Shown here: piece by piece, positions 20,388 to 37,346 of the stretch
How positions within the stretch are numbered: the stretch's first letter is position 1
How the letters are laid out: every line of letters starts with the position of its first letter
Origin: a virus
Lineage: Duplodnaviria; Caudoviricetes
Virus record (IMG/VR): IMGVR_UViG_3300009873_000007
Location: 9,693-73,692 of that record
Direction: 5' to 3' (one strand)
DNA: 64,000 nucleotides
The notes under the pieces: generated by a model
Seen by the model: the letters and a program-made list of their open reading frames with translations, nothing else
Database searches by the model: none
Told to the model about the DNA's origin: nothing
Translations under genes and position numbers: made by a program

Positions 20388-20447
20388 CGCCTAGAGCGTT
20401 CCGTTGATAAGGCGAGCATCGATTTAGTTCGATGTCTCGCCTTTTTT
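20388..20447 (+). promoter_or_regulatory. Late antiterminator/terminator element, copy A
   Basis: CGCCT-AG-AGCG-TTC-CGTT-GATA-AGGCG hairpin overlapping the terminator stem AGGCGAG..CTCGCCT-TTTTT. Confidence 0.75.
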
Positions 20448-20460
20448 GTTACCCGAAATT

Positions 20461-21663
20461 ATGACCATGAACGACGTTTCAGAACTCACATTTCCCTATC
20501 CGGCTCGTGTGTTGCGTGTGGATGTAGCGACACGAGCAACCGATTTGCTATCACTGGCGAAATCGCAAAGCGCCTTTGATCCATCCATTTTCGATGAACG
20601 AGCGCCTTTTTTCTGGACTGCCGAGATCAGCAACGACCAGATCGACTACTATTTCACCCACATGCTCGATAGTACGTTGGAAAACTTCGCCGCCGATGCC
20701 CGTTCCGGTGTCGCCTTTCAAAATAGCCATAACGTGCGAGAGTTGCCGCTTGGCCGAAGCCTGGATAGCCGCATTGAGACTGAAACTAACCGCAAGCGGG
20801 TAATGGTGGATTTTTATACGCTTGCCGGTCTGCGATTGAACGATGTCAGCACCGATGATTTCATTGCTGGCGTGCGCAGTGGCATCGTATCGGATGTTTC
20901 TGTTGGGTTCGGCGGTGGGAAGCATTTCTGCGATATTTGTCGCTCCAACTATCTGAGTTGGGATTGCCCACACGTTGCCGGCATGACCTATGACGTGAAA
21001 GACGCTGGCAGTGTGGTTGCTACTGTGAGTATTGATGGCGCACGATTGCACGAGGTCAGCGCCGTCTATGAGGGTGCTACACCTGACGCAACGATTGTCA
21101 AGGCACAACGCATGGCAGAGGCGGGCGAACTCCGACCCGAAGCCGTGCAAGTGTTGGAAGCTAGATACCGAATGCGATTACCGGCTAAACGAACATTCGC
21201 CGGGGTTGATGTACCAAAAAAGGATGAACCAATGGACTTTGAAACAATTGTGAATCAAGTGCGTGAGGCGCTCAGTGTTCCCGCCGATGGCGATGTGGTT
21301 GCCACTGTCACCGGCATCACTGGCGAGTTGGCGCAGTTGCGCACGGCCAAAGAAGCCGCCGATCAACGAATTCGCACACTCGAAACTGAGGCCGCCGATG
21401 GCCGTCAGTATCGCACAGATTTGGTGGCTGAAACGCTGGCGGAGGGCGTGCGAGCCTACGGTGATAAGTTCGAGCGGGCGACGTATGAGGAGCTTTTGAA
21501 AACAGCCTCACTGACCGTCATCAAGCGGATGAAAGCCGACTGGCAGAGTGTGGGCGACGAACGGTTCAGCGGTGGCCGCAAGAGCAATGATAACGGCGAT
21601 GCGCCTGTCAAGTCGCAAAGCAAACAGGCCGCTCGTGTTCCGAATGCAGCGTACAAGGCGTGA
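20461..21663 (+). CDS. Prohead protease/scaffold protein
   Basis: NSH...LPLGRS, VSDVSVGF, EVSAVYEGA protease-like motifs plus coiled-coil C-terminus. Confidence 0.75.
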   Translation: MTMNDVSELTFPYPARVLRVDVATRATDLLSLAKSQSAFDPSIFDERAPFFWTAEISNDQIDYYFTHMLDSTLENFAADARSGVAFQNSHNVRELPLGRSLDSRIETETNRKRVMVDFYTLAGLRLNDVSTDDFIAGVRSGIVSDVSVGFGGGKHFCDICRSNYLSWDCPHVAGMTYDVKDAGSVVATVSIDGARLHEVSAVYEGATPDATIVKAQRMAEAGELRPEAVQVLEARYRMRLPAKRTFAGVDVPKKDEPMDFETIVNQVREALSVPADGDVVATVTGITGELAQLRTAKEAADQRIRTLETEAADGRQYRTDLVAETLAEGVRAYGDKFERATYEELLKTASLTVIKRMKADWQSVGDERFSGGRKSNDNGDAPVKSQSKQAARVPNAAYKA

Positions 21664-21672
21664 GGTGATGAG

Positions 21673-22176
21673 ATGAAACAAAAATTCTACGTTGCTGGAT
21701 TTGTGGCTTTTGCGCTGCTGAGTGCGTTGCTGCTGTCTGTGATGCTCACCGGCTCGACTGTAGCTCAGTCGGACGTGAGCAATTACGATAATGTGCGCAC
21801 GTCGGGCTATGTCATTGCCGGTACTACCGTCACTGCCGGTACGGATGTTATCGCCGGGGATGATGTGACGTTGGGCGGCCATCTAGGTATGACTCCGGCC
21901 ACGACTATCACCGTAGGCTATCAAGGCACGATTACACCCACCGGCGGACTGCAATATCTCACTAGCACTGCCAATCGTGGCACTCGCCTGGTGGTAACTA
22001 CGACGTTGACCGCCGGGACGATTCAGGCATTTTACAACAGTGGTTCCAACACAATCACACTGACTGACACAGCGCCGTTGGTGCTGGGCGGCAATGCTGC
22101 TCTTGGGCCTGGCGATACGTTAGTTCTGTTTCACAACGGTACGTCTTGGGTTCAGTTGAGCAAGACAGATAATTAG
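21673..22176 (+). CDS. Head-module fibre-like protein with signal peptide
   Basis: MKQK plus long hydrophobic stretch; Thr/Gly-rich beta C-terminus (GDTLVLFHNGTSWVQLS). Confidence 0.6.
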   Translation: MKQKFYVAGFVAFALLSALLLSVMLTGSTVAQSDVSNYDNVRTSGYVIAGTTVTAGTDVIAGDDVTLGGHLGMTPATTITVGYQGTITPTGGLQYLTSTANRGTRLVVTTTLTAGTIQAFYNSGSNTITLTDTAPLVLGGNAALGPGDTLVLFHNGTSWVQLSKTDN

Positions 22177-22192
22177 TTCAGGAGCAATCACA

Positions 22193-22618
22193 ATGGCAGA
22201 CCCTAGAGCGACTACGACGGTAGTCGGCATCGGCTACGAAGCCGAAACTTATCCGCACGATAATACCATCGTGTACAGTGCCACCACAGCCGGTGGATCA
22301 GCGCAGGTTGGCTTGGCTGTGACCATCGAAGCCAGCAATGCCGTATCGCTGGTTGGCGATGGCGAGAACGTGCTTGGCAAGTTGATCAAAGTCGAAAGCG
22401 ACGGTCTGTGCGTCGTGCAAACCGGCGGCCACATGACCCTGCCAGGTGGCGACGGCGCTACGTTGACCGCTGGCCTGAAGATCGTAGGCGATCTTGGTGC
22501 GGCAAACGCTGAAGGCTACATCCAAGCCGTTAGCACGCAGGACACGGTATCTCGTGGCATGATTATCGATTCCTCCACCTCAACCGCTGTGGTTGTGCGT
22601 ATGGAACGGGCAGCGTAA
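22193..22618 (+). CDS. Capsid decoration/cement protein
   Basis: VSLVGDGENVLGKLIKVESDG..VVQTGG pattern directly before capsid gene. Confidence 0.75.
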   Translation: MADPRATTTVVGIGYEAETYPHDNTIVYSATTAGGSAQVGLAVTIEASNAVSLVGDGENVLGKLIKVESDGLCVVQTGGHMTLPGGDGATLTAGLKIVGDLGAANAEGYIQAVSTQDTVSRGMIIDSSTSTAVVVRMERAA

Positions 22619-22633
22619 GAGGAGATTAGCAGA

Positions 22634-23878
22634 ATGGATACACAAGTTACCACGTTGGGTACTCGTGAACTGTGGGAACAGTTTGAGAAGAACCCGCTGA
22701 ATGTTTACACCGATGTCGCTGTGCGGATGAAAGATGCTGGCATTGAGGAAGCGCCTACGCTCAGCCGTGCGTTGGAAGAAGTTAGCCCGACCGAAAAAGG
22801 CGACAATCTGGATGCGTTCGAGCGTCTCTTGCAAGAGGCTGGTATTCGCACCCACAGCGACCCGACCGCCGGATACTGGGCCAGCAATGCCGGTGTGTTT
22901 GCCAAGTCGCCCGGTACTCGTGCGTTGCTGACTGAGTTCTACGCCCGCAACTGGCGCAAGGTTAGCTACGGCATCAGCAACCGCAACGAACGTGCGATTC
23001 TGCTGAGTAGCGATAGCGTGGTTGGTTCGTTTGACCGCCCATACGCTGACGCCATGACGCCTCGTGAAAGCCAAAAGGTTGAACCGGCGATCCCGCTAAG
23101 CGAGCTGGTTGCGATGACCACCGCCATCGATGGCGATGCGTTTCGCAGCTACTACCTGACCTATAGTGCCGCTAACCTGCGCCAAGTGCGTGTGGGTGAG
23201 AGCGCCGAAATTCCTATCGCCACAATCACAGGTAGCGAGCATACCATTCGCCTGAAGAAATACGGGCGTGGTCTGCGAGCGTCCTATGAGGATTTGCGTC
23301 GCCTGCGTGTGGATAAGCTCGCTCGTTTCATTCAGTGGCAAGCCGTGCAGAGCGAGATTGATAAAGTCGTGGCCGCTATGGATGTGATCATCAATGGCGA
23401 CGGCAATTCTAGCACCGCTGCGACTGAAACTGACATCACCACACTGGATAGCAGCGCCACGAACGATGTGCTGACGCTCAAAGGTTGGCTGGCATTTAAA
23501 ATGCTGTTTGCGCAGCCGTATGTGCTGACCACAGCCTTGATGCGGTCTGATGTGGCACTGCAACTGGCAATGCTCAACACTGGTTCGGCTAACGTACCGT
23601 TGGTGAGTGTCAATCTTGGCGGCTTGGGCGTTGGTGCTACGCCGATCAATCGCTTCGCTGATAACGTGCGCTATGGCTGGCTGAGTGATGCGCCGGCCAA
23701 CAAGATCGTGGCATTCGACAATCGCTTCGCCCTGGAACGTGTCACCGAGATCGGTTCAGAAATCACCGAAATGGAGCGGTACATCACCAACCAAACGCAG
23801 GTGATGGTTGTCTCCGAGGTGGAAGGGTACGGGGTAATGGATCCCAACGCTTCCCGAATCCTTGACGTTGCCAATTAG
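22634..23878 (+). CDS. Major capsid protein (HK97-like fold)
   Basis: 414 aa; VGESAEIP, LKKYGRGLRASYE motif; strong AGGAG RBS. Confidence 0.88.
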   Translation: MDTQVTTLGTRELWEQFEKNPLNVYTDVAVRMKDAGIEEAPTLSRALEEVSPTEKGDNLDAFERLLQEAGIRTHSDPTAGYWASNAGVFAKSPGTRALLTEFYARNWRKVSYGISNRNERAILLSSDSVVGSFDRPYADAMTPRESQKVEPAIPLSELVAMTTAIDGDAFRSYYLTYSAANLRQVRVGESAEIPIATITGSEHTIRLKKYGRGLRASYEDLRRLRVDKLARFIQWQAVQSEIDKVVAAMDVIINGDGNSSTAATETDITTLDSSATNDVLTLKGWLAFKMLFAQPYVLTTALMRSDVALQLAMLNTGSANVPLVSVNLGGLGVGATPINRFADNVRYGWLSDAPANKIVAFDNRFALERVTEIGSEITEMERYITNQTQVMVVSEVEGYGVMDPNASRILDVAN

Positions 23879-23880
23879 CC

Positions 23881-24540
23881 TTACGGTCTAGGGATATGAC
23901 ACCAAGATTTACCGGCGACGATACTATGAATGGTTCCAGGGTTTACACCAAATTCACGAGCGAGAGCGGATTGACGTTCGCCTTGTTTCAATCGCTGAAG
24001 AATTTCAGTAACCTTGCTATCGTTCAGTATGCGCACGGCATCGGTAAATGTTACGGCTGGGCGTGCGATGTGCGCCCATGTTTCACCTCGGCAAATTTCG
24101 CCAATGGATTGAGACAACAAGCCGTAATGATTAGCGATTTCTTGGTAAGAGTATCCACGGTTGCGCAAATCAAGGATTTCAAGCACCTGTGTTTCGGTCA
24201 GCCTAGAATTGCCATGCTTTTCACCACGGCAAGCAAGTTCAATGCCGCCATTGCGCATTCTGCCCTTTTTTGCTGCATCAGCTATGTTGTCAGCCGGTGT
24301 ACCAAGAAACAAATGATCGGGGCGAACACAAGCGGGGATGTCACAATGATGACAAACGCACAATCCGTCAGGGATAGTGCCAAAGTGCAATTTCCAACTG
24401 AAGCGGTGTACGAGTTGGGTACGTCCATTAACTCGCATTTGTCCGTGACCGAATGGCATAGTGCATCCAGTCCAGAGCCAACAAGTGTCGGTCTTGTTGA
24501 CCTTATTCCAGAATCTTACTTCGGGAGATGGGTGGGCCAT
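23881..24540 (-). CDS. HNH homing endonuclease with HTH repeats, antisense insertion
   Basis: RFWNKVNKTDTCWLWTG, VHRFSW, HHCDIPACVRPDHLFLGTPADN, GEKHGNSRLTE; GGAG RBS. Confidence 0.92.
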   Translation of the reverse strand: MAHPSPEVRFWNKVNKTDTCWLWTGCTMPFGHGQMRVNGRTQLVHRFSWKLHFGTIPDGLCVCHHCDIPACVRPDHLFLGTPADNIADAAKKGRMRNGGIELACRGEKHGNSRLTETQVLEILDLRNRGYSYQEIANHYGLLSQSIGEICRGETWAHIARPAVTFTDAVRILNDSKVTEILQRLKQGERQSALAREFGVNPGTIHSIVAGKSWCHIPRP

Positions 24541-24695
24541 ATTTGTTCTCCAATCAAAAAGTCCTTTGCCGGCATCCAAGCGTTTGTGTCGAGCAAGCGC
24601 ATAGATCAGCAAAGGACAATGAAAGCATATCCTAGATATGCTTGGATGACAAATACGCTTGCTCGACAGGTGTATTGTACCACAGAAGGGGGCGT

Positions 24696-24977
24696 ATGAG
24701 CGAATTTGTAACCGTGAAATCCGCTAGTCGAGATGATCGGGTAGCTCTGTGGGAGTCGAATACCGATCATCCTAATGGCGAGGCGTTTATTGTCGGCAAT
24801 GGCAAGACGCACAAGGTTGCGTTGACCGCCGCTGTACAGCAACGCCTCAACGCTGGCGTGCTTGTGGAAGTCAAGACGAAGATCGTTGAAGCCGTTGCCG
24901 AGACTGTCACTGAGGCTGTGGAAGCCGCTACCGATGCTGTGACTAAACCGACTAGCCGCAAGCGCAAGGCTGACTAA
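24696..24977 (+). CDS. Hypothetical head-tail region protein
   Basis: GAAGGGG RBS; basic C-terminal tail. Confidence 0.65.
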   Translation: MSEFVTVKSASRDDRVALWESNTDHPNGEAFIVGNGKTHKVALTAAVQQRLNAGVLVEVKTKIVEAVAETVTEAVEAATDAVTKPTSRKRKAD

Positions 24978-25387
24978 TGGCTGCTGTGACACTGACAGTA
25001 TCGGATTTTATCTATCCACAAGGCGAGCTACAGCCTGCGATGTTTCCGACCGCTGGCGAGTTGCAAGCCAATCTTGCACAGTGGCTAGATGAGGCTGCCG
25101 GTAAATCCGCCATTACGTCGCTATCCACTGCTGACGAAGCCAACACCGCTGCAACGCACTGGGTTCTCTACCGTGCCTATGCTGCGGTGGCGCAGCGTAT
25201 CGCTCTACAGCCGTCCAGCGAAAGCCGTGGGGATGTGGATCGTAGCTGGGGGCAGGGTCGCATCGATTATTTCAGCGGCCTATCGGCGGCACACAAAGCT
25301 AGTTTTGATGGTCTGGTAACGGTCACAGGAACGGCTACCGGCATGGCATTGTTCACAGTGGCAAAGGCAAACCGTCTCAATGGGTGA
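24977..25387 (+). CDS. Head-tail adaptor
   Basis: Position and size; SESRGDVDRSW motif. Confidence 0.6.
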   Translation: MAAVTLTVSDFIYPQGELQPAMFPTAGELQANLAQWLDEAAGKSAITSLSTADEANTAATHWVLYRAYAAVAQRIALQPSSESRGDVDRSWGQGRIDYFSGLSAAHKASFDGLVTVTGTATGMALFTVAKANRLNG

Positions 25388-25889
25388 ATCTGCCTGGGTT
25401 GATACCGATGCAGCGTTGGTCGCACTGTTTGACGAGCATATGGGCAATAGTAGCGATTACACAACACTACAGGTTCAATACGTCGCTTCCCTAATCGGCA
25501 TGGATGTGACCGACTGGGATACGTGGGCGACCGAAGGCAAGCTGCCTGCGATCATCGTGCAAGGTCGCTTCACACGTCCACAGCAGCGGGAACATGGCAC
25601 AATGTTTACATCACCGCTACATATCGCCAAAGAGTATCAGTATATCGTTGGTGCTGTGGTTGAGGGTGATAGGCAAACTGCTGAACAGTATGCCAAGATT
25701 CTCGTCAAGCGCATCGAAAAAGTTGTGTTGACAGAGAAGAAAGTTAATGTCACTGATAGCAACGGCGAGCAGGTGCAACGCATCCAGCTTGACGGGCCAA
25801 CCGGCATCCATCCATTTAGGAAAGCCGACAGCGATAACCGCTGGTATGCTGTGGGCGCTGTGGGTCTAGTAGCAAAGACAACGACTTAA
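25380..25889 (+). CDS. Tail completion/terminator protein
   Basis: Position before tail tube; LPAIIVQ motif. Confidence 0.55.
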   Translation: MGESAWVDTDAALVALFDEHMGNSSDYTTLQVQYVASLIGMDVTDWDTWATEGKLPAIIVQGRFTRPQQREHGTMFTSPLHIAKEYQYIVGAVVEGDRQTAEQYAKILVKRIEKVVLTEKKVNVTDSNGEQVQRIQLDGPTGIHPFRKADSDNRWYAVGAVGLVAKTTT

Positions 25890-25917
25890 CAATAAGTCGC
25901 TTAACAATAACAAATCA

Positions 25918-26027
25918 CGCCTAGAACGAACACGTTGACAAGGCGACATGGTAGCCTAAAGGCTGCTTTGTCTTCCTTTGATGCAGGCGACAGGTAGCAA
26001 ATCGCTACTATGTCGCCTGTTTCATTT
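25918..26027 (+). promoter_or_regulatory. Late antiterminator/terminator element, copy B (duplicated stem arm)
   Basis: CGCCT-AG-AACG-AACA-CGTT-GACA-AGGCG; 3' arm GCTACTATGTCGCCT at 26004-26018. Confidence 0.7.
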
Positions 26028-26038
26028 GGAGGACTCGC

Positions 26039-27055
26039 ATGTCCGTTAATTCACTAGATGCCAGTATTAGCGTTGGCGTGCAATCCGCCAAAGGAACTGC
26101 CGCCACTGCGTATAAAACCGCACTGGCAACCACGAGCGGTGTCAACGCACGATTTGATGAGCGTCCTACGTTGTTGGAGCATCCTGGGTCGGGTAGCTCT
26201 GTGCCGTGGGAACTCAAAGCGGTCGCTGAACGCACCGGTTATCTCGTGCCGGTAAATGCCACATTCCTATTGCGCCCTCGATTTATCGGGCCAGTGTTGC
26301 GGGGTGTTATGGGCGTGAGCAGCGTCAACAATACGACGCACTACACCCACACGTTTACTCCTGCGACCAACGCCAACCTTGCATGGTTGACCGTCCTGCA
26401 TAAATTCGTTGGTGACAGCGATTTCGAGCGGAAGATCACCGATGTTCGACTGACGCAACTCAACATCGATGCAACACTGGAACAAGTGCAATGCCAAATG
26501 CAGGGGATGGGGCTAACAGAAGGGATTGCTGCCGGTACAGAAACCAAAGTTGCGGAAATCGGTACGGAGATTTCGCCCTACAGCGGCTCTGTCACTTGGA
26601 CAATTGCCGGGGATGCGCCTACCTCCACAATCCGTGGTGCGCAGGTTCAGATCACCCAAACGCTTGACGAGAATGATCGTGTGCTGTTCTCGCAGACTCG
26701 TGCCAACCTGCCACGCCAGCGGATTGCCGTAACTGGCACGGTGCGAGGTGTGGATATTGACGCTGATACGTATGAAGCGTACAAACTGACCAAATACGGT
26801 TCTGCCGCTGGTACTGCTCCCACACTGACTGCTCCTACCGGCCCACTCACCCTCACTTTTCAATCGCTGTCTAACATTAGCGGCGCTGCGGTTCCGTTCC
26901 GGCTGACGATGGCTTTCGCCAAAGTGCAATGGGACTTAGAGTCACCCAACGCCAACAATGATGATACCGTGAGGGCTGATATTACCTGGCGGCTAGTCGG
27001 TGATTCGAGTCCTGCCATGACATTTACGGTTGTTTCCGATCAGGCGACACCATAG
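26039..27055 (+). CDS. Major tail tube protein
   Basis: SVGVQSAKGTAAT, THYTHTFTP motifs; GGAGG RBS; precedes chaperone. Confidence 0.85.
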   Translation: MSVNSLDASISVGVQSAKGTAATAYKTALATTSGVNARFDERPTLLEHPGSGSSVPWELKAVAERTGYLVPVNATFLLRPRFIGPVLRGVMGVSSVNNTTHYTHTFTPATNANLAWLTVLHKFVGDSDFERKITDVRLTQLNIDATLEQVQCQMQGMGLTEGIAAGTETKVAEIGTEISPYSGSVTWTIAGDAPTSTIRGAQVQITQTLDENDRVLFSQTRANLPRQRIAVTGTVRGVDIDADTYEAYKLTKYGSAAGTAPTLTAPTGPLTLTFQSLSNISGAAVPFRLTMAFAKVQWDLESPNANNDDTVRADITWRLVGDSSPAMTFTVVSDQATP

Positions 27056-27070
27056 GAATCTTAACAATCT

Positions 27071-27583
27071 ATGCCACGAGCTACTAAGGCGACTACGCCC
27101 AAAGCTAACATCGAATCCACTCCCTTGATGGACTGGGAGCAATTCGCACAGATTGATTGCCGCACGCCGGACGGCCAGCAGGCTCGCATCTATGCAGGCG
27201 AGTGCCAGGTGCTAGACCAGGGTCGCTACAACAAATATATCAACGAGGCTGCCGATTATCTACGTCAAAAGTACGGCGAATCGGTTGACGATATGGAGAT
27301 TTGGAGCGACCGATTTAACGAGAATGTGGCGCTGCGCAACCGGGCGGCGATGCTGGCGACGTTCCGCAAATTCGAGGTGATGAACGGCGACGGTGCATAC
27401 CACGAAGCGCCATTACCGAGGGAATGGGTAGAGATTGAATCCTTTTTCAAGATGAACGGCAAACTGTACCGGGAATGGTCGCAGAATGCCGTGATGCTCA
27501 ATCCCGATCTTTTTGGCGTCAATCTGGATGATGACCAAAAAAAAGGATTAAGCGTCTCAACGACTTGGTTAACTCGTATGTAG
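27071..27583 (+). CDS. Tail assembly chaperone (gpG-like)
   Basis: Follows tail tube; ends after DDDQKK slippery site. Confidence 0.8.
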   Translation: MPRATKATTPKANIESTPLMDWEQFAQIDCRTPDGQQARIYAGECQVLDQGRYNKYINEAADYLRQKYGESVDDMEIWSDRFNENVALRNRAAMLATFRKFEVMNGDGAYHEAPLPREWVEIESFFKMNGKLYREWSQNAVMLNPDLFGVNLDDDQKKGLSVSTTWLTRM

Positions 27584-27882
27584 TGCGGGTTGTGGACGCT
27601 GACGAGGAGCGGGAAAAGCGGCGCAAGGATGAGGCCGACAAAAAGTTACTTGCGCCAGAAGTGCGCCACAAACGCAATGAGGAACGCAAAAAGCGCCACG
27701 AGGCAGAATCATTGATAGACGAAGCAAACCTGAGAATCTATCAAATCTGGCGTTTTTTTGGTGGTCGTGAGCGGGGTATCAGTCCTGTAGAAGCTAGGGA
27801 TATGCCTGCAGACTTGTGCCATGATTTTATGTTGATTGAATCTCGATTGTTTGATGAAGAAGAAAGACGGAAGGGTAGATAG
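27071..27882 (+). CDS. Tail assembly chaperone long form via -1 frameshift (gpGT-like)
   Basis: A_AAA_AAA at 27538-27544; -1 frame continues KRIKRLNDLVNSY... to 27882. Confidence 0.75.
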
Positions 27883-30800
27883 GTGACAACTTATTGGATT
27901 GCCCCTCCGACGCACGCTACCACCCCCGGCAATGATTCTACCGGCAACGGCAGCAACGCTACCCCGTGGGCGACCTTTGCCAAAGCCATCACGGTGCTAG
28001 TCGCTGGTGACACGCTCAAGGTCAAAGCCGGCACATACACCCCTGCCGCCAAAGTTGAATTTAAGATCAACGGCACATCCTCCGGTAATCCTGTGGTTGT
28101 GGAAGCCGACGATCCCACCAACAAGCCGACTGTTGATGGTCAATACAACATTCCGCCAGATGACGACCCAGAGGCCGGCTATACCTCCACAAACGGGACT
28201 CGCGGTTTGTTTGGCGGCTTAATCACCATTCGCACCTCCTATTTCACCTGGCGCAATATCAATGTCAAGCGGTCGCAAGGTCGTGGATTCAATGTGTACG
28301 GCTCTCCATCCTCGCGCATCACAAATATCGTGATAGAAGATTGTGAAATACAGAAAAGCCGTACAAATAATGTTGCGATTCAGGATGCAAACTATGTAAC
28401 CGTTCGCCGCAACCACTCGCATCACTCGTGCGATTATCTCGAAGGTTTGACCAATTCCATTAGTCCCGACGACAAATGGTGTGCCTCCATCAAAGGCATC
28501 AAGATGGGCAATATCACCTTCGAGTATAACCATGTCCACACGGGCTGGGGCGAAGGGATGATCTTCGGGCCAGGGAGTGAGAATTGCACAAGCCGCTACA
28601 ATCTCATTTACAACACGGCAAGCGGCAAAATGTATGTGCAACGTGGAACCGGCCATCGCATTTATGGCAACCTTATTTATGACACTCGTGATAACGAGGT
28701 ACACAAAGGTGCATCCGGTTCTACCGGCATGTCGGTGCGTAACGAGGCTGGCAGCGAAGGCACACCGATTGATGATGTGTGGTTCTACAATAACATCAGC
28801 ATCGGCAACAGTTACAATTTTACGCTAGGTGGATCGCAGGGCGGCTCAGAGGAAGCTGTAACTGGCGTCAAAGTATGGCATAACATTTTTGTCAATGCCA
28901 TATTGCCGGGAACACGTCCGTTTGCTGCACTATCTATCACAGGCAATACCTACATTGTCGATTGTGAATTTGTCAATAACATCATCTGGCAGCCAGATCA
29001 CGAGTATTGCAATCGCAACAGTCTACCGAATAATCCAGATGGTACGCCAGCGGATTTAGATTTTCGTGACAATGCCTGGGATAGTGCTAGTGGTGATGTC
29101 CCTGCGTGGTTGCGAGACGGCAATGATGATTACAGCATTAGCTTGTTTGCACCAAATACCGCATTGACGCCAGGCACGACAGCTTACAATAACTATCGAC
29201 CAACGACTGATTATATCGGTGAAACAATAGCCGGTGTCACCACGGATTTCCTGGGTGAGCTACGAGCGACGTATTTCAAGGGCGGGCTGCCGAGTGGTAA
29301 CAATGTCACACCACCGCCAGCCTCTACCGGTCTAGTACGTGCCGGCGTGACCTACAATACGGTAGGTCAAGCGACCGGCACAGTTGATCACACCGATTCG
29401 ACTGGTATGGCAGGCGAGACGCCATCGGCGGCGCTAGTGTTTGCTTCGCATGCTACAAGCGCCGGTAGTGTGGCGCAATTCGCTCGTCTGTCTGTGGGTG
29501 TCTATGCGACCGGTCAGGCTGTGGGTACAATCCGGCTTCGTGATGCTGTAGGGACAGCCGCTAACCACACGTCGGGCTCTACATCAGCACTCGTGCAACT
29601 TCGCCACAACAGCACGACGGCGGTTGACCACCAGCAAGAAGCTGATGCTTTTATTGCCAACGGTCTACGCACCACACGAACCGTACTGCCATCAATGGAT
29701 GCTGGTACGATTACGGCATTGTTTGGCGGTACTGCGTTCCGTGCGCAATCCGGTACGGTGACTTGCTCAAGCAGTAATGGCGGCACTGCTACGATCTCAC
29801 TGCCGTGGACGCCATCAATATTGTTTTTGTTCTGTACGAATACCGACTTCGCCGGTACTAACTCTAGTGGCGGCGCTATGATGTCGCATGGTGTGGCGAC
29901 GGGAACAGGTGCACAGTTCGCATTGTCGTTCTACGCATCCACAGCTATCAATAGTGAGGCGACGGCATATTTAACCAATGCCAGCATCGGGTATAACGCA
30001 GCAAATTCACAAACTCATACGATCACGACCTGGGGTGCAAGCACTGTTCTCACCACTGGCGGCACAACCGGCACACGCATCTATGAGTATTTGGCGTTGG
30101 AAGTGACGGGCGCTGCGGTCTATGCGGGAACATTCAGCAGCCGTACAACCACAGGCAGTCAGACACTATCCGGGCCAAACTTTGAACCTGCCATCTGCGG
30201 CACATTTATGTCGCTTGTGGATGCGTTGAACACGAGCAAAACTGATGCGCAGGCCGGTGCAATGGCGGTCAGTGTGTTTACCGCCGATGCCGAGGAATCA
30301 ATCGCCTTTAGCTATCAGGATAACGTTGCCACGACCAACAGCGGCACGGTGTACGATGCCAAAGCCATCAATATCATGCAGCATGATCAGAGTGCGGGCA
30401 TCACAGCCACATTAACGAGCATGGGCGGCACTGGCCCAGTGCTGGATTACACTGCGGTGCTCGGTTCCGCCCGCTATGGCATCCTGTGGGCCATTGAGGC
30501 GCAGAATGTAACGAGTATCGTTAAGCTCGTGCCAGAGGTGTTGAGGTTGATTGACAACACTAGCCGCCGCATGGCGATGTGGAGGTTGAAAACCGAAACA
30601 CTCAATCTTGTCGAGTCTGTGCGCAACGTGCGAGGGTTAAGCCGGGTTGCCAGTGAGGTATTGAATCTCGTGGAATCCGTTAGCTATCTGTATGGTGCGG
30701 TAAAAGTCATCAGCGAGGTATTGAATCTCGTTGAAGGTGTGATTCCGCATCGCAAATTGCGCCAGGTGATTATCGAGATTCTCAATTTTCACGAAACGGT

Positions 30801-31131
30801 ACTTCCACGCCGGGGATTCGCACGAATTATCAATGAGACGCTGAATCTCGTAGAGGGCAATATCGGCAAGAAACTATTGCTGATGATCATCAATGAGGTG
30901 CTAGACCTGGCAGAGTCAATTGTTCCGGCTCGTGCAATTCGACGTGTAATCAACGAGGGTCTTTTGCTTGATGAATCCATCCGGCGCATCCGTGGATTAA
31001 AAGAGATCATCAGCGAAACGCTGAATCTGTCTGAAATCACCGACAAGATCAAGAACTTTACCGTGATTCGCAGCATCATTCGCATCGCCGGCAACGTGAC
31101 ACGGCGCATCCGGCTAGGGGGCCGCCTATGA
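27883..31131 (+). CDS. Large fibre/depolymerase: parallel beta-helix, Thr/Gly-rich middle, basic 20-aa repeats
   Basis: GNDSTGNGS..PWATFAKA...GDTLKVKAGTY beta-helix start; Asn-rich coils; I(N/S)ExLNLxE repeats. Confidence 0.8.
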   Translation: MTTYWIAPPTHATTPGNDSTGNGSNATPWATFAKAITVLVAGDTLKVKAGTYTPAAKVEFKINGTSSGNPVVVEADDPTNKPTVDGQYNIPPDDDPEAGYTSTNGTRGLFGGLITIRTSYFTWRNINVKRSQGRGFNVYGSPSSRITNIVIEDCEIQKSRTNNVAIQDANYVTVRRNHSHHSCDYLEGLTNSISPDDKWCASIKGIKMGNITFEYNHVHTGWGEGMIFGPGSENCTSRYNLIYNTASGKMYVQRGTGHRIYGNLIYDTRDNEVHKGASGSTGMSVRNEAGSEGTPIDDVWFYNNISIGNSYNFTLGGSQGGSEEAVTGVKVWHNIFVNAILPGTRPFAALSITGNTYIVDCEFVNNIIWQPDHEYCNRNSLPNNPDGTPADLDFRDNAWDSASGDVPAWLRDGNDDYSISLFAPNTALTPGTTAYNNYRPTTDYIGETIAGVTTDFLGELRATYFKGGLPSGNNVTPPPASTGLVRAGVTYNTVGQATGTVDHTDSTGMAGETPSAALVFASHATSAGSVAQFARLSVGVYATGQAVGTIRLRDAVGTAANHTSGSTSALVQLRHNSTTAVDHQQEADAFIANGLRTTRTVLPSMDAGTITALFGGTAFRAQSGTVTCSSSNGGTATISLPWTPSILFLFCTNTDFAGTNSSGGAMMSHGVATGTGAQFALSFYASTAINSEATAYLTNASIGYNAANSQTHTITTWGASTVLTTGGTTGTRIYEYLALEVTGAAVYAGTFSSRTTTGSQTLSGPNFEPAICGTFMSLVDALNTSKTDAQAGAMAVSVFTADAEESIAFSYQDNVATTNSGTVYDAKAINIMQHDQSAGITATLTSMGGTGPVLDYTAVLGSARYGILWAIEAQNVTSIVKLVPEVLRLIDNTSRRMAMWRLKTETLNLVESVRNVRGLSRVASEVLNLVESVSYLYGAVKVISEVLNLVEGVIPHRKLRQVIIEILNFHETVLPRRGFARIINETLNLVEGNIGKKLLLMIINEVLDLAESIVPARAIRRVINEGLLLDESIRRIRGLKEIISETLNLSEITDKIKNFTVIRSIIRIAGNVTRRIRLGGRL

Positions 31132-31751
31132 CGGCAACTGCACAGAATTTTGCATTTTACCAGGGTGAGACGAAAACGTTGGAGGTGCTTGTCACCGATG
31201 GCGATAATGAGAATGCGCCGTTTTCACTGACCAACGTAATCGAAATCGACTGGGGTGCATGGGTTGACATCAACACTCGCATCCTCACCAAAAAATTGAC
31301 GCTAGGCGCACCGGATAATATTGTTCGGTTTAGTTCTGCCGGTACAGATGATGCGCTGCGAATGAATTTCACCGTTACCGATACGCAAATCCTGAACGGT
31401 GATTACTACCACGAATGTCGCATTATCGATAGTAGCGGTAATCAAGACGTAATTTTCATCGGCACAATGACGATTGGTGACAGTCGCACGGTGCAACCAT
31501 CGATGCTCGGTTCGGAGACTATCACGGTTACGGAAGCGGTAACAGTATCGGTGCAAGCGACCTCCACACCGTCTATCAGCGTGAGTGATAGCGTAACAGT
31601 GACGGAAGCGGTAACGCTGATGATTGAATCATACATCGTTGTAAGCGATGGCGTGAGCGTGGCCGAGTTGATTGAGTTGATCCTGGTGTCACTGGCGAAT
31701 GTGAGTGAGTCGATTACGTTGGCCGAGGAAGTGACGGTGGCGATTGAGTAA
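31128..31751 (+). CDS. BppU-like adaptor with three acidic repeats
   Basis: FYQGETKTLEVLVTD...YYHECRI; C-terminal SVSDSVTVTEAV repeats. Confidence 0.65.
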   Translation: MTATAQNFAFYQGETKTLEVLVTDGDNENAPFSLTNVIEIDWGAWVDINTRILTKKLTLGAPDNIVRFSSAGTDDALRMNFTVTDTQILNGDYYHECRIIDSSGNQDVIFIGTMTIGDSRTVQPSMLGSETITVTEAVTVSVQATSTPSISVSDSVTVTEAVTLMIESYIVVSDGVSVAELIELILVSLANVSESITLAEEVTVAIE

Positions 31752-31888
31752 ATTGTTTAGAACACTGACAGGATTGCTGCTGTACTGGTGCGATCCCGTC
31801 TTTCGCAAAATGGTAGACAACAAACGAAAAAACGTTGAAACGATTCAGCGTGGCGAGAGTGTATTAGCAGTCAAGAGGAGCAACGGCA

Positions 31889-32521
31889 ATGTTTCTAAAA
31901 TTGAAATCGGCGGCGCTTGAACACTACCGGCGCACTTATCCACAATACTGGCTGGATTGTCTGGTTGACCGGATTATGAAGGATGTACGCAATCAGCGTG
32001 CGAAATTTGACGGTGTGCGATTGACATTCGGCCAGGTGTTGGCGGTCAAACGCCATGCGTATCTCGATTTGGAGTTGGTGATTCCCGGCCTAAACATCGT
32101 CACCAACAATGGCGATCTGTACTATGCTCAGATGGCCGCTGGCGAGTCGCCTGCATCCACAATCGACTACGATGGTAGTAATGGTGGCTTGCGCCTCGGT
32201 AGCGGATCAACATCACCGACTAAGACGAGCAACGATGTGACAACGTTTCTTGCTGGTACAGGTCATGCGTTGGATGCGACCTACGAGAAAACCAACGATG
32301 GTGATAGCGATAATACCGGCGCTGCTACCGATACGGTGACGTGGCGATACTCATACACCACATCGGAAGGCAATGTCAGCGGCATCAATGAGGGAGCGAT
32401 TGTCGATAATCGCACTACGCCAAACACGGCATTGACGCATTTTCTCTTTGCTGCAACATTCCAGAAAACGAGTTCAGACACCCTGAAGTGCTTCGCCAAT
32501 CATAATTATTTGGGAGTCTAG
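31889..32521 (+). CDS. Tail-collar/fibre-base-like protein
   Basis: NIVTNNG...LRLGSGSTSP...GNVSGINEGAI pattern; similar to 12741-13253. Confidence 0.55.
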   Translation: MFLKLKSAALEHYRRTYPQYWLDCLVDRIMKDVRNQRAKFDGVRLTFGQVLAVKRHAYLDLELVIPGLNIVTNNGDLYYAQMAAGESPASTIDYDGSNGGLRLGSGSTSPTKTSNDVTTFLAGTGHALDATYEKTNDGDSDNTGAATDTVTWRYSYTTSEGNVSGINEGAIVDNRTTPNTALTHFLFAATFQKTSSDTLKCFANHNYLGV

Positions 32522-32586
32522 TCTTATTGCATAAATAAAAAATTATGCAATATAAATTGTAAGAGGATTGTGACACAACCGCAACC

Positions 32587-33078
32587 ATGAATCTCACCAT
32601 CACCGGCCCAACCGATCCATTCGCCGCCCTGCGTCAGTTCTTTGCGAGGCTCGAACGTCCCGGCAATGGTGAGATTCGCCAGGTTGCTACTGCTATAGCG
32701 CAGGGTCATCAGGCGAATTTTAGCGGTGAGCGTAGCGGCAGCGGCGAAGCATGGGCAGAACTGTCACGAGTAACGGTGCTGGAGCGTGTGCAACAAGGCT
32801 ACCCCGGCGCACATCCGATCCTGAGACGGTCGGGGCGTCTACGTGATAGCCTTGTCAATCCTGCGCATCCTGACCACTACCAGGCGATGAATCGTGCCGC
32901 CGATGGATGGTCGCTAGAGGTTGGAACGAATGTTGATTATGCGTTGGAACTAGAGATCGGTGAAGGTCGAATGCCAGCTAGACCGTTTACCGGCCTGTCT
33001 GACGATGCGGAAAATCGAATTGTGACCGTACTGGAACACGTTATCGACCAGGCGAGACAACGTTATTTGAGGAAATAG
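32587..33078 (+). CDS. Phage virion morphogenesis protein (Mu gpG-like)
   Basis: WAELS, ILRRSGRLRDSL, VGTNVDYA, MPARPFTG motifs. Confidence 0.85.
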   Translation: MNLTITGPTDPFAALRQFFARLERPGNGEIRQVATAIAQGHQANFSGERSGSGEAWAELSRVTVLERVQQGYPGAHPILRRSGRLRDSLVNPAHPDHYQAMNRAADGWSLEVGTNVDYALELEIGEGRMPARPFTGLSDDAENRIVTVLEHVIDQARQRYLRK

Positions 33079-36000
33079 TGCCAGATCAAAGACTCCTTTA
33101 CACCGTTGCGCTGAGTGTGGGTAACGCTCAGGCTGAACTAAATAAACTGACACAGATTGTGCAACGCACCAATGCGCAACTCGCCAATCAGCCAGCGGCT
33201 CGTGCAATAGCGACGGGTGCGATTGAGGCTGAACGACGACTAACGGCTACTACCAGAGCAGAAGCACAATCACGGATAGCAGCAGCACGGGCAGAGGCGA
33301 ACGAACGGACACAACAAGCACGGGCGGCGGCAGAAGGTGTCATCCAACAAGAGCGCAGAATCACACAACAGGCGGTAGCCGAAGCACGTCAGCGAGCGCA
33401 GGCGCAACGAGCGCCAACAGTGGCGTCCACACCACCACCAGGGGGTACGGGTGGTGGGCTAGGGCTTGGTGGCGCTGTGCTTGGTGGTTTAGCTGGCTAT
33501 GCGACCATTCAGGGCGTACAAGAGATTGGCCGGCAAGCGATTGCTCTATCCGAGCTTGGCACACAGGCTAATCGTGCTGAGGCTGGATTTCGTATTCTAT
33601 CTGGCGGTGCTACTGAAGCCGCCAGGCGCATCCGTGCTATCCAAGAGGCGGCAGGCGGTACAATTGATTCACTGACCGCAATGCAGGTTGGCAATCAGGC
33701 CATTGCACTGGGACTCGCTAAAACAACATCTGAATTTGGCAAGCTGACCACAGCGGCCAGAGCCGTGGCGCTTGTATCGCCAATCATCCACGATGTACAA
33801 GGCGCAATGGCCGAACTTGGTTTGGCGGCTGCAAACCTATCATTTCGGCGCTTGGATCAGCTAGGGTTATCGGTTGGCGAAGTCAAAGATCGCATGGCCG
33901 AATTGCAAGCCGAAAATGCCAACCTGGATGATTCGCAGGCGTTTTTGGCGGCCAGCGTTGACATTTTAAATACCAAATATGGCGCTCTATTGCAGAGCAC
34001 CGAAGCGCAAGCGTCTGGTTTTGAACGACTGAAAGTTGCCATCCAAGAGGCGAGATTGGCGCTGGCTGAAGGGCCTGTTGGTGGTGGCATTGATGCGCTG
34101 TTGGGCGGCCTTGTGCCAACCGTGGAAGCTATCGGCGGCACACCAGGCGAAGCGGTCGTCAACTGGAAACTATTGCTTGGTATTAGCGACCTGGAAGATA
34201 ACATTGAACGCATCAAGACGTTGATTGACCCGAAAGGGTTATCGTCTGTACTTGAACAAGGGCTACGTTTTGCTACCGGCAACCAGGTAAATCAGCAACA
34301 ATTGCTAGAGGTGGTGAATGTCACTGAGCAGTACAACGCTGCTATTGAACGTGGTGTGCCAGGGTTGGAGGGTTATCGGGTAGCACTAGCAGCTATCGCA
34401 GAACAGGCATCACGCACTGGTAGCCTGACCGCCGAAAATCAGGTTGCGCTCGATGCGCTTTCTCTTTCCATCTCTCAGGCAGAATCCGCTTACAACAGAC
34501 TAAATAGTGCTAATGTTGATGTCAACCTTGAAGCCTTCGAGGGACTAGACGATCTTTCCAAGCGCATCACTGACGCTTTTACCGCCGCCGATGCCGCTGT
34601 ACGTGCCGGCATTCCTGGCGCTGAGGAGTACCGTAGTGCAATTTCGCAACTAGCCGCCGATATTGCCAGCGGTACAGGCACAATGGAGGAGCAATCAGCG
34701 GCGCTAGGTGAGTTAGAAAGCTGGCTCACATTTGCCGGTGATGCGTCTAATCTCCTCACACAAGCGCAAGGCGGCACGGCTAACGCATCTGGCATCATGG
34801 GATCATCGGCGTTGGATGCTGCACAACTCATCTCAATGCTTGGTGATGAGTCGCTGACCTCTGCGGAAAAGGTCAACATCCTGCGGGCGGCGCTGGCTGG
34901 CGTTTCTGCGTTACAGGGACAATTCGACGCTGCACGTAGACAAGCGGATGCAGCGGTGCTCGGTGCGTCAAAATCGTTGATTGACATTGGCGGCGATCCA
35001 TTTGCCTATTTACGCCAAAATCAAATCAGCGATACGCAGATTAAACAGCTACAGGCGCAATATCCCGATCCTAAAGAGTTTCAGCTTGCACTAGCACAAC
35101 AAATTGAAATGAGTACCGCTGGCGCTGAGGCGCAAATCGAAGCCGTGCGGGAATCCGAACGAGCCATGAAACGGGCAGCATCGGAATCCGAAAAAGCATT
35201 CAAAAAGGCCGCACAAGCTGCTGAGGATGCTTGGCAGGATGCCGCCAGTTCGCTGCAACGTGGGTTGGAAACAACACCAGGACTATTTGGCTCATCAAAA
35301 GTCACACAGGAACAATTAACACTGGCCGAAGGTGGCATACCGCAGAACTTTGCCGATAATTTTATCCGTCGCCTTGAAGCCGAGATCAACGAAAAGAAAG
35401 ATTTATTCCCCGATGTCTCACTCGACAAAGCACGAGAGGCGCTATCTCGTGTGGGTATCATCCCTGGCGAAACTGTGGAAGCCACGCTGATCCAGTTACG
35501 CCAAGCCTGGGAGAATAGCGCATTGTTTGCGCATCCGGCGAACCTTGAGTTAATCGACCAAGCGGCGGTCAAAGAGAATTTGGCGTTGCAGGAAAAAGCC
35601 GAGCAGGGCCGCAAAAACATCTATCAATTTTTCGCCAGCACGATTGATGCAGCGTTGAAACCATTTTTACCAGGTGGTGAGGGGTTGGAGAAACCTTCAG
35701 GGTTGCCAGAGGGGTACACTGTGGATGCTGATGGTAATGTGACAGCACCGCAGGGCGCATGGGCAGGCATCGATCAGGATAAATTAGAGCAGATTCAGCA
35801 ATTGCCGAACAAGATCATCGAAACAGCACTGACGCAGGTTGACCAAGCACTAGCCGGTACAGGTGGCATTGGCGGCGCTGGTGGTCTAACTGGTGGCCTA
35901 GCCGCTGGTGTGGAGGGTGCGCCGCCGATCCAGGGCTTAACTGGTGGCGTGCTAACCATCTCCACAATTGAAATAGCGCCGGATGCGTTGGAATCAGCAC

Positions 36001-36323
36001 TAGCCGGTCTATCTGGCGGCATCAATGAAGAAAATCAAGCCATGTTGGAAGGTATCGGGGACGGGATGGCACAGTTTATCGATGTCGGTCTAATCGGTTA
36101 CGACTTCGCACCGGCGGCCACATCGATTATCACGAATCTGCGCAGCGGGTTTGCGACCGAAGATAATCTTGACAAGCTCATTGGCATCGGTGACGGTTTT
36201 ATGGAGTTCATCAGGCAAGGCATGTCAGCACGAGCGGGCCGGCCAGAGTTTGCCGAGGATTTAGTCAATATTCTCGTGTCTGCTTTTGCCGAACAATTGC
36301 AGGAGGCATTAGCAAATGGCTGA
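33078..36323 (+). CDS. Tape measure protein
   Basis: 1081 aa, Ala/Gln/Leu-rich helical; upstream of tail tip genes. Confidence 0.85.
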   Translation: MPDQRLLYTVALSVGNAQAELNKLTQIVQRTNAQLANQPAARAIATGAIEAERRLTATTRAEAQSRIAAARAEANERTQQARAAAEGVIQQERRITQQAVAEARQRAQAQRAPTVASTPPPGGTGGGLGLGGAVLGGLAGYATIQGVQEIGRQAIALSELGTQANRAEAGFRILSGGATEAARRIRAIQEAAGGTIDSLTAMQVGNQAIALGLAKTTSEFGKLTTAARAVALVSPIIHDVQGAMAELGLAAANLSFRRLDQLGLSVGEVKDRMAELQAENANLDDSQAFLAASVDILNTKYGALLQSTEAQASGFERLKVAIQEARLALAEGPVGGGIDALLGGLVPTVEAIGGTPGEAVVNWKLLLGISDLEDNIERIKTLIDPKGLSSVLEQGLRFATGNQVNQQQLLEVVNVTEQYNAAIERGVPGLEGYRVALAAIAEQASRTGSLTAENQVALDALSLSISQAESAYNRLNSANVDVNLEAFEGLDDLSKRITDAFTAADAAVRAGIPGAEEYRSAISQLAADIASGTGTMEEQSAALGELESWLTFAGDASNLLTQAQGGTANASGIMGSSALDAAQLISMLGDESLTSAEKVNILRAALAGVSALQGQFDAARRQADAAVLGASKSLIDIGGDPFAYLRQNQISDTQIKQLQAQYPDPKEFQLALAQQIEMSTAGAEAQIEAVRESERAMKRAASESEKAFKKAAQAAEDAWQDAASSLQRGLETTPGLFGSSKVTQEQLTLAEGGIPQNFADNFIRRLEAEINEKKDLFPDVSLDKAREALSRVGIIPGETVEATLIQLRQAWENSALFAHPANLELIDQAAVKENLALQEKAEQGRKNIYQFFASTIDAALKPFLPGGEGLEKPSGLPEGYTVDADGNVTAPQGAWAGIDQDKLEQIQQLPNKIIETALTQVDQALAGTGGIGGAGGLTGGLAAGVEGAPPIQGLTGGVLTISTIEIAPDALESALAGLSGGINEENQAMLEGIGDGMAQFIDVGLIGYDFAPAATSIITNLRSGFATEDNLDKLIGIGDGFMEFIRQGMSARAGRPEFAEDLVNILVSAFAEQLQEALANG

Positions 36324-36708
36324 TCTTCCATTGCCGATGCAGATCGGAACATATACGCTCACACGAGTTGATGCGGCTGGTACGTATTTGTTGGGCGGTC
36401 GTGGTGATTATAAATTCGAGCCATACACGTTGACCGGGCGGCGTAATGGTCGTGGGTTGCAAGTCGCTACGGGATATGCAAAAATCGTGTGGAAGTGGAG
36501 TACATTGCCGTGGATCGACTGGCAATTCCTGGCAGGCGTGCTATTGTTGGAGCAACCATCTAGGCGATTCACGTTCGCACGATTCTACAATCAATTCAAC
36601 TCGCTGCAAACATTCTCTCATTGCATCGTCCACACGCCTACGTATGAGGGTCAGTATGGCGGCGACTTTCTCAACGTGGTGCTGAATATCGACAGGATCA
36701 TGGTATGA
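36316..36708 (+). CDS. Distal tail (Dit-like) protein
   Basis: Position after TMP; GYAKIVWKW pattern. Confidence 0.55.
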   Translation: MADLPLPMQIGTYTLTRVDAAGTYLLGGRGDYKFEPYTLTGRRNGRGLQVATGYAKIVWKWSTLPWIDWQFLAGVLLLEQPSRRFTFARFYNQFNSLQTFSHCIVHTPTYEGQYGGDFLNVVLNIDRIMV

Positions 36709-36911
36709 CCCTAGAAGAATCGTTTGCTTCAGTTCTCACGGGATTGATGGAACAGATAAAAGCCAGAAGGATGGCCGGCGATCCTGAACCTGTAATTTCT
36801 GAGTTTTGGGATACTTTCTTGTGGGAAGCGATGAAACCTAAATCGGAGATTGATACTAATGGCAACCAAACCACCAACACAGGCCGAACGCCTGTATATG
36901 CTGCTGGCTGA
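36705..36911 (+). CDS. Hypothetical protein
   Basis: ATGA overlap; 68 aa. Confidence 0.5.
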   Translation: MTLEESFASVLTGLMEQIKARRMAGDPEPVISEFWDTFLWEAMKPKSEIDTNGNQTTNTGRTPVYAAG

Positions 36912-37074
36912 TGCGTTGTGGAGTGCAGAGGGAACAGACAGCGCCGCCACGGTGCGCAATCGAGTGATGCAAGGTGTGGATGATGCCACACGCACTGAGG
37001 TGGAAGCGTTAGTCCGTGGCCGACGACTACTGTATACGCAACAGGCAACGCCAGAAAGTGCGGAAGCCGAATAG
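36859..37074 (+). CDS. Hypothetical protein
   Basis: GGAG upstream; 71 aa. Confidence 0.5.
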   Translation: MATKPPTQAERLYMLLADALWSAEGTDSAATVRNRVMQGVDDATRTEVEALVRGRRLLYTQQATPESAEAE

Positions 37075-37090
37075 GTGTGGTAGAATGAAA

Positions 37091-37260
37091 GTCGTTGCGG
37101 CCTCGACAGCGAACGCAGGCAGGTGAATACACCATCGAGGCTTACACTGGCGTCGGTGTGGATGGACACACAGGGATTGACCAACACGCAAACATCCTTT
37201 GAGGTGTACCCGTAGGTGACGGTTTCAGCAGCCTACTAGCCGGATACCGGCACGCCAGTA
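37091..37260 (+). ncRNA. Candidate structured ncRNA
   Basis: Extended -10 TGGTAGAAT at 37078-37086; stems GCCTCGA/TCGAGGC, ACTGGCGT/ACGCCAGT, AGGGAT/ATCCTT, GTAGG/CCTAC. Confidence 0.5.
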
Positions 37261-37273
37261 TAACTACATATCA

Positions 37274-37335
37274 CGCTTAGAACGTTCTCGTTGACAAAGC
37301 GACAGTATCCCATCGGGGGTATTGTCGCTTTTTTT
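37274..37335 (+). promoter_or_regulatory. Late antiterminator/terminator element, copy C
   Basis: CGCTT-AG-AACG-TTCT-CGTT-GACA-AAGCG overlapping terminator AAAGCGACAGTATCC..GGGTATTGTCGCTTT-TTTT. Confidence 0.75.
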
Positions 37336-37346
37336 GTTTCCTATGT

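Follow-up and report, generated by a model that had tools for sequence, protein, structure and literature searches.

A conserved hairpin motif at intrinsic terminators before the structural genes of an uncultured temperate phage, and a linked 69-aa protein as candidate trans factor

The DNA analysed here (the window) is a 64,000-nt stretch of an uncultured temperate phage, bases 9693-73692 of the 73.7-kb IMG/VR virus record IMGVR_UViG_3300009873_000007, in which a hairpin motif of about 28 nt is present three times on the + strand, ahead of the head block (site A), the tail block (site B) and a tail fibre gene (site C). The motif is proposed to be a cis-acting RNA antiterminator hairpin that is stabilised by a factor, with a basic 69-aa protein encoded just upstream of site A as the likely binder, and on the sequence comparisons presented below this proposal is given about an even chance of being right. 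It is carried by the covariation of the motif, by the overlap of the motif with intrinsic terminators, and by the linkage of the motif, the terminator and the 69-aa gene in phages with unrelated head genes.

The three copies share the string ACGCYTAGARCG-(3-4 nt)-CGTTGAYAARGCG, and the chance expectation for the 24-nt core pattern was 0.02 occurrences. With a covariance model (R1) built from four copies, copy A (20388..20414, + strand; outer stem of 5 bp, AG/GAUA internal loop, inner stem of 4 bp and 3-nt loop) scored 48 bits, copy B (25918..25945, + strand) 49.9 bits and copy C (37274..37301, + strand; outer stem CGCUU/AAGCG) 51.1 bits, compared with 12.7 bits for the next-best match on either strand of the 64 kb. 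Only copies A, B and C were found in the entire 73.7-kb record. The three-copy + strand motif noticed in an earlier reading of this DNA, made without database searches (the sequence-only reading), was therefore borne out. Folded alone, each copy gave -7 to -10 kcal/mol, with the 5-bp outer stem, the AG/GAYA loop, the 4-bp inner stem and an apical loop of 3-4 nt. The covarying outer stem and the free apical loop described in the same reading were also confirmed, with CGCCU/AGGCG in A and B versus CGCUU/AAGCG in C and with apical loops that differ between copies in length and sequence. The internal loop is asymmetric, with 2 nt on one side and 4 nt on the other. Its AG is invariant, and the GAYA strand, which had been taken as invariant too, is so within the window but not across relatives, where one copy has GAAA, so the conserved form is GANA.

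The structure was examined with seven copies, six of them distinct, from four contigs, some of which share ancestry. Standard pairs were present in 96% of the cells, compared with 33-50% after the 3' partners were slid by 1-3 columns, both-sided (compensatory) changes were observed in 3/9 pairs, and the covariation score was matched by 1/500 shuffles. Because the sample is small and partly related by descent, these statistics are only suggestive. The cells that were not Watson-Crick were five G-U (four independent events) and the G-A closure of a GAUA tetraloop, with zero A-C. Transitions through G-U only, the variable loop length and the 2-nt/4-nt internal loop point to a hairpin in + strand RNA and away from a palindrome in DNA.

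As to whether an existing Rfam family covers the motif, a check named in the sequence-only reading, none claims it, and the whole window was without a match at gathering thresholds. Permissive Rfam scans around A and C gave only chance-level matches to P10, sR43 and Pistol; the match to the Pistol ribozyme (RF02679) reached 13.2 bits against a threshold of 34.5 (E = 8.3), with the cleavage-site columns deleted and the pseudoknot complement absent. No tRNA or tmRNA was called by ARAGORN and Rfam in the window or in the loci L101, L107, L108, L116 and L121 from other phages. The hexamer TTGACA within the motif was considered as a sigma70 -35 element and rejected, with no TAnnnT 16-18 nt downstream in any copy and with CTGATA or CTGAAA in its place in relatives.

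The motif is embedded in predicted intrinsic terminators. Terminator A (20409..20448, + strand) has a 14-bp stem and U6, and its 5' base is the 3' strand of motif A, while terminator C (37296..37337, + strand), with a 16-bp stem and U7, overlaps the 3' strand of motif C. The minimum-energy fold of site A is the terminator, at about -24 kcal/mol. A G+C-rich stem-loop followed by a U tract was found at A and C, in the related contig L101 and at both copies (L107 A' and L107 B') of a 48-kb relative, and in these sequences, five of the six distinct ones, the terminator base is formed by the motif's 3' strand (ARGCG in A and C). The five terminator stems differ in sequence, and the shared bases covary in both folds. 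When the outer stem was forced in these five copies, the residual hairpin stopped 6-12 nt short of the U tract, at a cost of 6-13 kcal/mol over the minimum-energy fold. Since the stem must reach the U tract for intrinsic termination, a residual hairpin at such a distance should disable termination, and because of the energy cost a stabilising factor or a kinetic trap would be needed.

At site B, the leader (25945..26034, + strand) contains a degenerate terminator copy that abuts the motif, and then a strong hairpin (25983-26020) with a U-rich tail, which is interrupted. The 5' arm of the terminator is directly repeated in tandem here (25941-55 and 25986-99), and the strong terminator uses the second copy of AGGCGACA-GGUAGC. 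Forcing the motif cost 1.6 kcal/mol and left the strong hairpin unaffected, so that the motif and the hairpins can coexist. The mutually exclusive folds claimed earlier for each copy were thus found at A and C, where the forced motif leaves the hairpin short of the U tract, but not at B. In addition, GUCUUCC (25970-76), in the 3' arm of the degenerate copy, is predicted to pair with the Shine-Dalgarno sequence of the tube gene, GGAGGAC (26028-34), and this pairing, which is conserved in the related contig L108, suggests an added translational control at site B.

Beyond the window, four further copies were found in three related contigs, namely L101, a 48-kb Logan contig with two copies (reached via the tail tube protein and covered by L107, L119 and L120), and L108, also reached via the tube protein. 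In L101, a relative at 75% identity, the motif is at the same place and reads CGCUU-AG-AGC-GAUA-GCU-GAUA-GAGCG; the terminator there has a different sequence, yet starts with GAGCG of the motif. In the 48-kb relative, copy A' is located 5' of the head block and has the 3' loop GAAA, copy B' is located 5' of the tube gene and has the outer stem CGUCC/GGGCG, and each overlaps its own, different terminator. Site B of L108, 5' of the tube gene, is identical to that of the window. The insert carrying site C is absent from the 48-kb relative (L119), where the flanking genes overlap. The antiterminator/terminator logic at the RNA level, put forward in the sequence-only reading, gains from the compensatory and G-U changes and from the recurrence of the terminator overlap in L101, L107 A' and L107 B', but it is not followed at site B, which misfits exclusive folds.

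The motif has a narrow distribution. Tube-gene relatives at <=67% identity were without site B, the motif was not found in L109, L115, L116, L122 and L123-127, and R1 gave no credible match across 73 loci of more distant relatives. Exact and relaxed pattern searches returned 0, 3 and 2 hits in IMG/VR and 17 in JGI metagenomes, near the chance number, and these hits were in coding or unrelated contexts with no terminators. The JGI metagenome hits L096 and L097 were, by eye, part of a real tRNA and unrelated to the motif. In the more distant L116 (5260-5340), a terminator before a head gene has an apical part (TATCCCAT-GCGGGGTAT) that is near-identical to that of terminator C, and no motif is present upstream of it.

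The candidate trans factor is the 69-aa basic protein encoded at 20023..20232 (+ strand), immediately 5' of the motif A region. This open reading frame (ORF) is coding, as the third codon positions differ about twice as much as the first and second in all three comparisons (including L101 and L107). The family has four known members, in the window, L101 (68% identity), L107 (61%) and L121 (41%), the last being the sole further true homologue from 1.8 billion representatives; no more homologues were found in IMG/VR or GTDB genomes. The phmmer matches P0163 (1282 aa) and P0165 (275 aa) were rejected, with 4-21 tandem WRRCMGIEPT-like repeats that look like translated tRNA-like or other repeat DNA. 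All four members are located directly upstream of a hairpin, which is divergent in L121, and a terminator. In the 48-kb relative, no tblastn match to the window was obtained for the portal, the capsid, a 322-aa product or the 415-aa product encoded 3' of the motif, and despite these unrelated head genes the 69-aa gene 5' of its motif copy is 61% identical. In L121, the portal-side genes are followed in the same order by a 68-aa gene, a structured leader of 310 nt, GACAAGGGCG, which leads into a strong terminator, and finally a scaffold gene; R1 does not detect the divergent hairpin. The gene, motif and terminator therefore move as a cassette across unrelated head modules, which supports ORF 20023 as the factor. 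It had been one of three candidates in the sequence-only reading, and the constant placement upstream of hairpin and terminator is the strongest argument for it. Of the two other candidates, a homologue of ORF 36859 is present in a relative without site C, and no homologue of ORF 8308 was detected in the 37.6 kb sampled of the 48-kb contig.

Between the 69-aa gene and the hairpin, long structured non-coding leaders are present in the window (20238-20368) and in L121 (6010-6200), the latter with a hairpin resembling a tRNA T-arm (GGTTCGATTCC), where ARAGORN and Rfam call nothing. No sequence similarity was found among the leaders upstream of A, C and the L121 hairpin. No such leader is present in L101 or L107, and the hairpin is thus not dependent on one.

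A sigma70-type promoter, P_A (TTGACT-17-TATACT; 20038..20066, + strand), matches the consensus at 10/12 positions and lies inside the 5' end of the 69-aa ORF. Its -10 hexamer TATACT is that of the strong early promoters of the same genome. L107 and L101 (the latter with TTGACG) retain the hexamers and the exact 17-nt spacing around a different spacer sequence, and in L121 TTGAAA-17-TAAGAT with an upstream TG is present at the same relative position, despite the differing protein sequence there. From these features we infer that P_A is active. The predicted P_A transcripts would start past the start codon, extend through what remains of the ORF and through the leader, and stop at terminator A. 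An extended -10 promoter-like site (TG-n-TAGAAT; 37078..37086, + strand), about 190 nt upstream of motif C, may likewise be active, to judge from its sequence. A conserved promoter before site B was rejected, since the TGGTATGCT site of the window is not kept in L108 or L107, and site B would be reached by read-through from the head block.

In the proposed mechanism, the hairpin would form on the + strand transcript just ahead of the terminator and would overlap the foot of the terminator stem by five to six bases. By default the much more stable terminator would win, and transcription would halt before the head block at A, the tail block at B and the fibre gene at C. A factor holding the hairpin closed would leave the remainder of the terminator stem away from the U tract, so that RNA polymerase would continue. 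The likeliest factor, the 69-aa protein, would be made from the upstream terminase/portal transcript, and P_A inside its own ORF would yield a leader that ends at terminator A unless the 69-aa protein is present, giving a feed-forward gate. In this scheme, that the 69-aa protein binds RNA, that transcription terminates at the U tracts and that regulation runs in this direction are predictions. The terminator that ends the late block (44053..44078, + strand) carries no motif, and R1 found nothing nearby, which fits a local rather than a processive override.

Several points weigh against this mechanism. The six distinct copies come from four contigs, some sharing ancestry, which leaves the covariation suggestive only. 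At site B, in the window and in L108, the folds are not exclusive and a full terminator follows that the hairpin cannot disarm. Another + strand terminator in the same long gene block (~8528-8575) carries no motif, which leaves room for a different means of read-through. Neither the AlphaFold2 (AF2) model nor comparison with the PDB reveals a recognisable RNA-binding fold in the 69-aa protein, which, to judge by the LuxR-type regulators of sister phages, might bind DNA instead. The model (pLDDT 72) consists of a beta-hairpin, a 22-residue helix and a basic C-terminal helix, and the net charge of the protein is +4 (manual count). Pfam and PHROG scans of the protein and a PDB fold search with the model were without a match, and a language-model search gave nothing informative.

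The slot occupied by site A is filled differently in sister phages. In many relatives at 50-63% protease identity, a 68-85-aa gene of the LuxR/GerE helix-turn-helix (HTH) type is located just 5' of the protease gene and is followed by phage-specific tandem 16-18-bp lux-box-like palindromes and then by a terminator; these loci include L011:3820-3945, L021:7860-8000, L020, L024, L025, L009, L013, L014, L019, L006 and L008. In at least 12 such loci, a conserved TAYRnT hexamer, often with a preceding TG (TGnTAYRnT), was observed in the 5' arm or the apex of the terminator. By its sequence this hexamer is a sigma70 -10 element, and in L011 the proximal palindrome is centred near -43 (manual count), which is the usual position for lux-box-type activation. 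The sister cassette appears to terminate incoming transcription and to re-initiate inside the terminator, that is, to be an activator-dependent promoter built into a terminator. It shares with the window the slot itself (after the MuF-like minor head gene and before the prohead protease), the same kind of terminator with a U-rich leader, and a small regulator immediately 5' of the cis sites. It differs in its HTH DNA binder, its tandem palindromes, its -10 element in the terminator loop and its re-initiation instead of read-through. A different small regulator with its own cis sites before the same terminator indicates that the position is a regulatory slot. In the window, a homologue of this LuxR-type regulator was looked for without success.

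These sister loci also argue for control at the DNA level. In that case the motif would serve as a double-stranded operator or activator site for a DNA-binding 69-aa protein, by which a weak promoter within or beside the terminator would be switched on. In keeping with such a site, the motif is imperfectly palindromic and TTGACA is present within several copies. However, the six motif copies are without a conserved -10 element at a fixed distance, and TTGACA is replaced by CTGATA or CTGAAA in relatives, so that the motif phages most likely solve the same gating at the RNA level. The arms of the motif also differ by 2 nt and its centre varies in length, a poor fit for a dimeric DNA binder, and the mismatches are G-U only, with changes that are compensatory. 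Control at the DNA level is considered unlikely.

A cis-acting RNA could also work without a dedicated phage protein, either as an early-forming hairpin that delays or weakens the terminator (a built-in leak) or by contacting RNA polymerase or a host factor directly, as HK022 put does. The hairpin is transcribed before the terminator and has to be displaced by branch migration, and the conservation beyond the stems (the AUCA flank, AG and GANA) might mark where polymerase or a host protein makes contact. At equilibrium, however, the terminator is favoured by the 6-13 kcal/mol given above, a constitutive override would leave the terminator pointless, and there would be no account of why the motif stays so closely linked to the 69-aa gene in mosaic genomes. 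This makes a protein-free RNA quite improbable.

At least as doubtful is an RNA operator with another role, for example a site for processing or stability that sets where head, tail and fibre mRNAs end, or a translational operator of the gene whose start lies 15-95 nt further on. The genes after terminators A and C begin 14-20 nt past the U tract without a clear Shine-Dalgarno sequence, the pairing predicted at site B would hide that of the tube gene, and abundant virion proteins are encoded downstream of all three sites, all of which would suit such a role. It leaves unexplained why bases are shared with the terminator stem in five independent contexts, and the distance from motif to start codon varies from 47 to 95 nt. 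Passive duplication, in which recombination distributed copies of one intergenic terminator module and the upstream hairpin is itself without function, would account for the similar terminator tails and leaders at several sites and across relatives, the internal duplication at site B and the insertion of site C that a relative lacks, but it is very improbable, as the hairpin is kept with compensatory changes while the terminator stems differ between copies, and is conserved between phages at ~50-75% protein identity, where neutral intergenic sequence has diverged.

Compared with known systems, an RNA antiterminator with the 69-aa protein as binder would be closest in logic to the RAT elements bound by BglG, SacY and LicT. 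In both cases an imperfect hairpin of ~28 nt with asymmetric internal loops immediately precedes an intrinsic terminator, the terminator's 5' arm is overlapped by the hairpin's 3' strand (in five of the six distinct copies here, the exception being window B/L108), and the terminator is thermodynamically favoured, so that read-through requires bound protein. In contrast, the sequence of the motif is unrelated to RAT, phage late genes rather than sugar operons are downstream, and the folds at site B are not exclusive. No CAT_RBD or PRD domain was found by Pfam in the 69-aa protein and 39 other window products. The comparison with the BglG/SacY type drawn in the sequence-only reading therefore does not extend to membership of that family.

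The N-nut system of lambda and P22 is also similar, with a small basic phage protein encoded beside its RNA site and a hairpin just before a terminator. The 3' internal loop GANA of the motif, followed by A/G, recalls the GNRA-like boxB loops, such as the GACAA pentaloop of P22 boxB (PMC12550061). Whereas boxB is a simple 15-nt hairpin, the motif has a second helix nested between AG and GANA, so that GANA is a strand of an internal loop and not a hairpin loop. No boxA was identified near the motif. Lambda N is processive with Nus factors, unlike the arrangement here, where each internal terminator has its own motif copy and the final one has none; the arginine-rich motif of N is N-terminal, whereas the basic residues of the 69-aa protein are in the C-terminal helix, and no PHROG or Pfam match to N was obtained. 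The motif system resembles RAT/BglG and N/nut in logic and belongs to neither family.

The PR'-6S-tR' region controlled by lambda Q is laid out like site A: a promoter that looks strong and constitutive is followed by a leader of 200-370 nt, non-coding or coding only in part, then by an intrinsic terminator and by late structural genes. Q, however, binds DNA at the promoter and rides with polymerase, while the conserved element here abuts the terminator and not the promoter, and the 69-aa candidate is about one third of the size of Q. HK022 put is likewise a phage RNA element with covarying stems and more than one copy per genome, and it suppresses termination. It differs in being ~65-70 nt long with two stem-loops, located near promoters, independent of any phage protein and processive, none of which is shown by the motif.

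The timing of late genes has been worked out in no more than a few model phages (N, Q, put and Ogr/C/Mor-type activators). In its widest form, the proposal would be that individual intrinsic terminators are disarmed by a novel family of phage proteins of ~69 aa, through binding to a hairpin whose AG/GANA internal loop is GNRA-like; that gene, internal promoter, hairpin and terminator make up a portable regulatory cassette; and that in some lineages this cassette replaced a LuxR-activator cassette, in which a promoter lies inside the terminator, and then spread within one genome to the tail and fibre intergenic sites. This is put forward tentatively, at somewhat short of an even chance. If true, it would represent a compact RNA-protein antitermination module without sequence relationship to known ones, and a natural case in which two unrelated regulatory solutions (activator and promoter-in-terminator versus RNA binder and antiterminator) were exchanged at one slot. 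Its two parts, a hairpin of 28 nt and a protein of 69 aa, are small, would lend themselves easily to testing and might be useful as an orthogonal transcription switch. Should the reading fail, the hairpin would still be a conserved, unexplained RNA motif, though only of a rare phage lineage.

The genes on the + strand extend across 1-43.7 kb of the window, with SSB, DnaB, RusA and the beta clamp first, followed by a fibre-like gene, a methyltransferase, the terminase subunits, the portal, the MuF-like gene and the head and tail genes. The region 43.8-60 kb is a minus-strand block with near-consensus sigma70 promoters, mostly TTGACA-17-TATACT, and the integrase gene is located at 61207-62160. 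No gene for an RNA polymerase or a sigma factor was found among the window products scanned, so the phage should depend on the host polymerase. Megablast found no closely related annotated phages, and tblastn gave only distant proteases of Bacillus, Brevibacillus and Enterococcus phages.

The three sites had been described as gating the capsid, tail tube and tail tip genes, which needs adjusting at site A. The first gene 3' of site A is of the prohead protease/scaffold type (20467..21663, + strand), with conserved His/Ser motifs in the alignment, a tblastn match to an annotated head maturation protease and hundreds of homologues; the major capsid gene (22634-23878, + strand; major head protein PHROG) lies further on in the same gated block. 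The first gene 3' of site B is the tail tube gene (26039..27055, + strand), with PF18906 Phage_tube_2 on close homologues and a PHROG tail match. The first gene 3' of site C is a 910-aa tail fibre/tip-type gene (37347..40079, + strand), with a weak structural-protein PHROG match and a 914-aa homologue in L119. In the leaders after terminators A and C (20449-20469 and 37337-37349), translation initiation may depend on the U-rich leader, and most other window genes do have a Shine-Dalgarno sequence, unlike the two genes that follow these leaders.

Two further observations were made in the window. At 8267-8590, a promoter-like TTGTCA-17-TATGAT with TG is followed by a 64-aa ORF and then by the strong terminator at ~8528-8575, whose U-rich tail and next bases resemble those after terminator A and in relatives (TTTTGTTTTACCTGAAA). 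An early protein of 109-113 aa is encoded at 46115-46456 on the - strand of the window and at L120:533-862, with 32% identity, and it is the only other protein common to the 48-kb relative beyond the tail module, the large terminase and the 69-aa gene.

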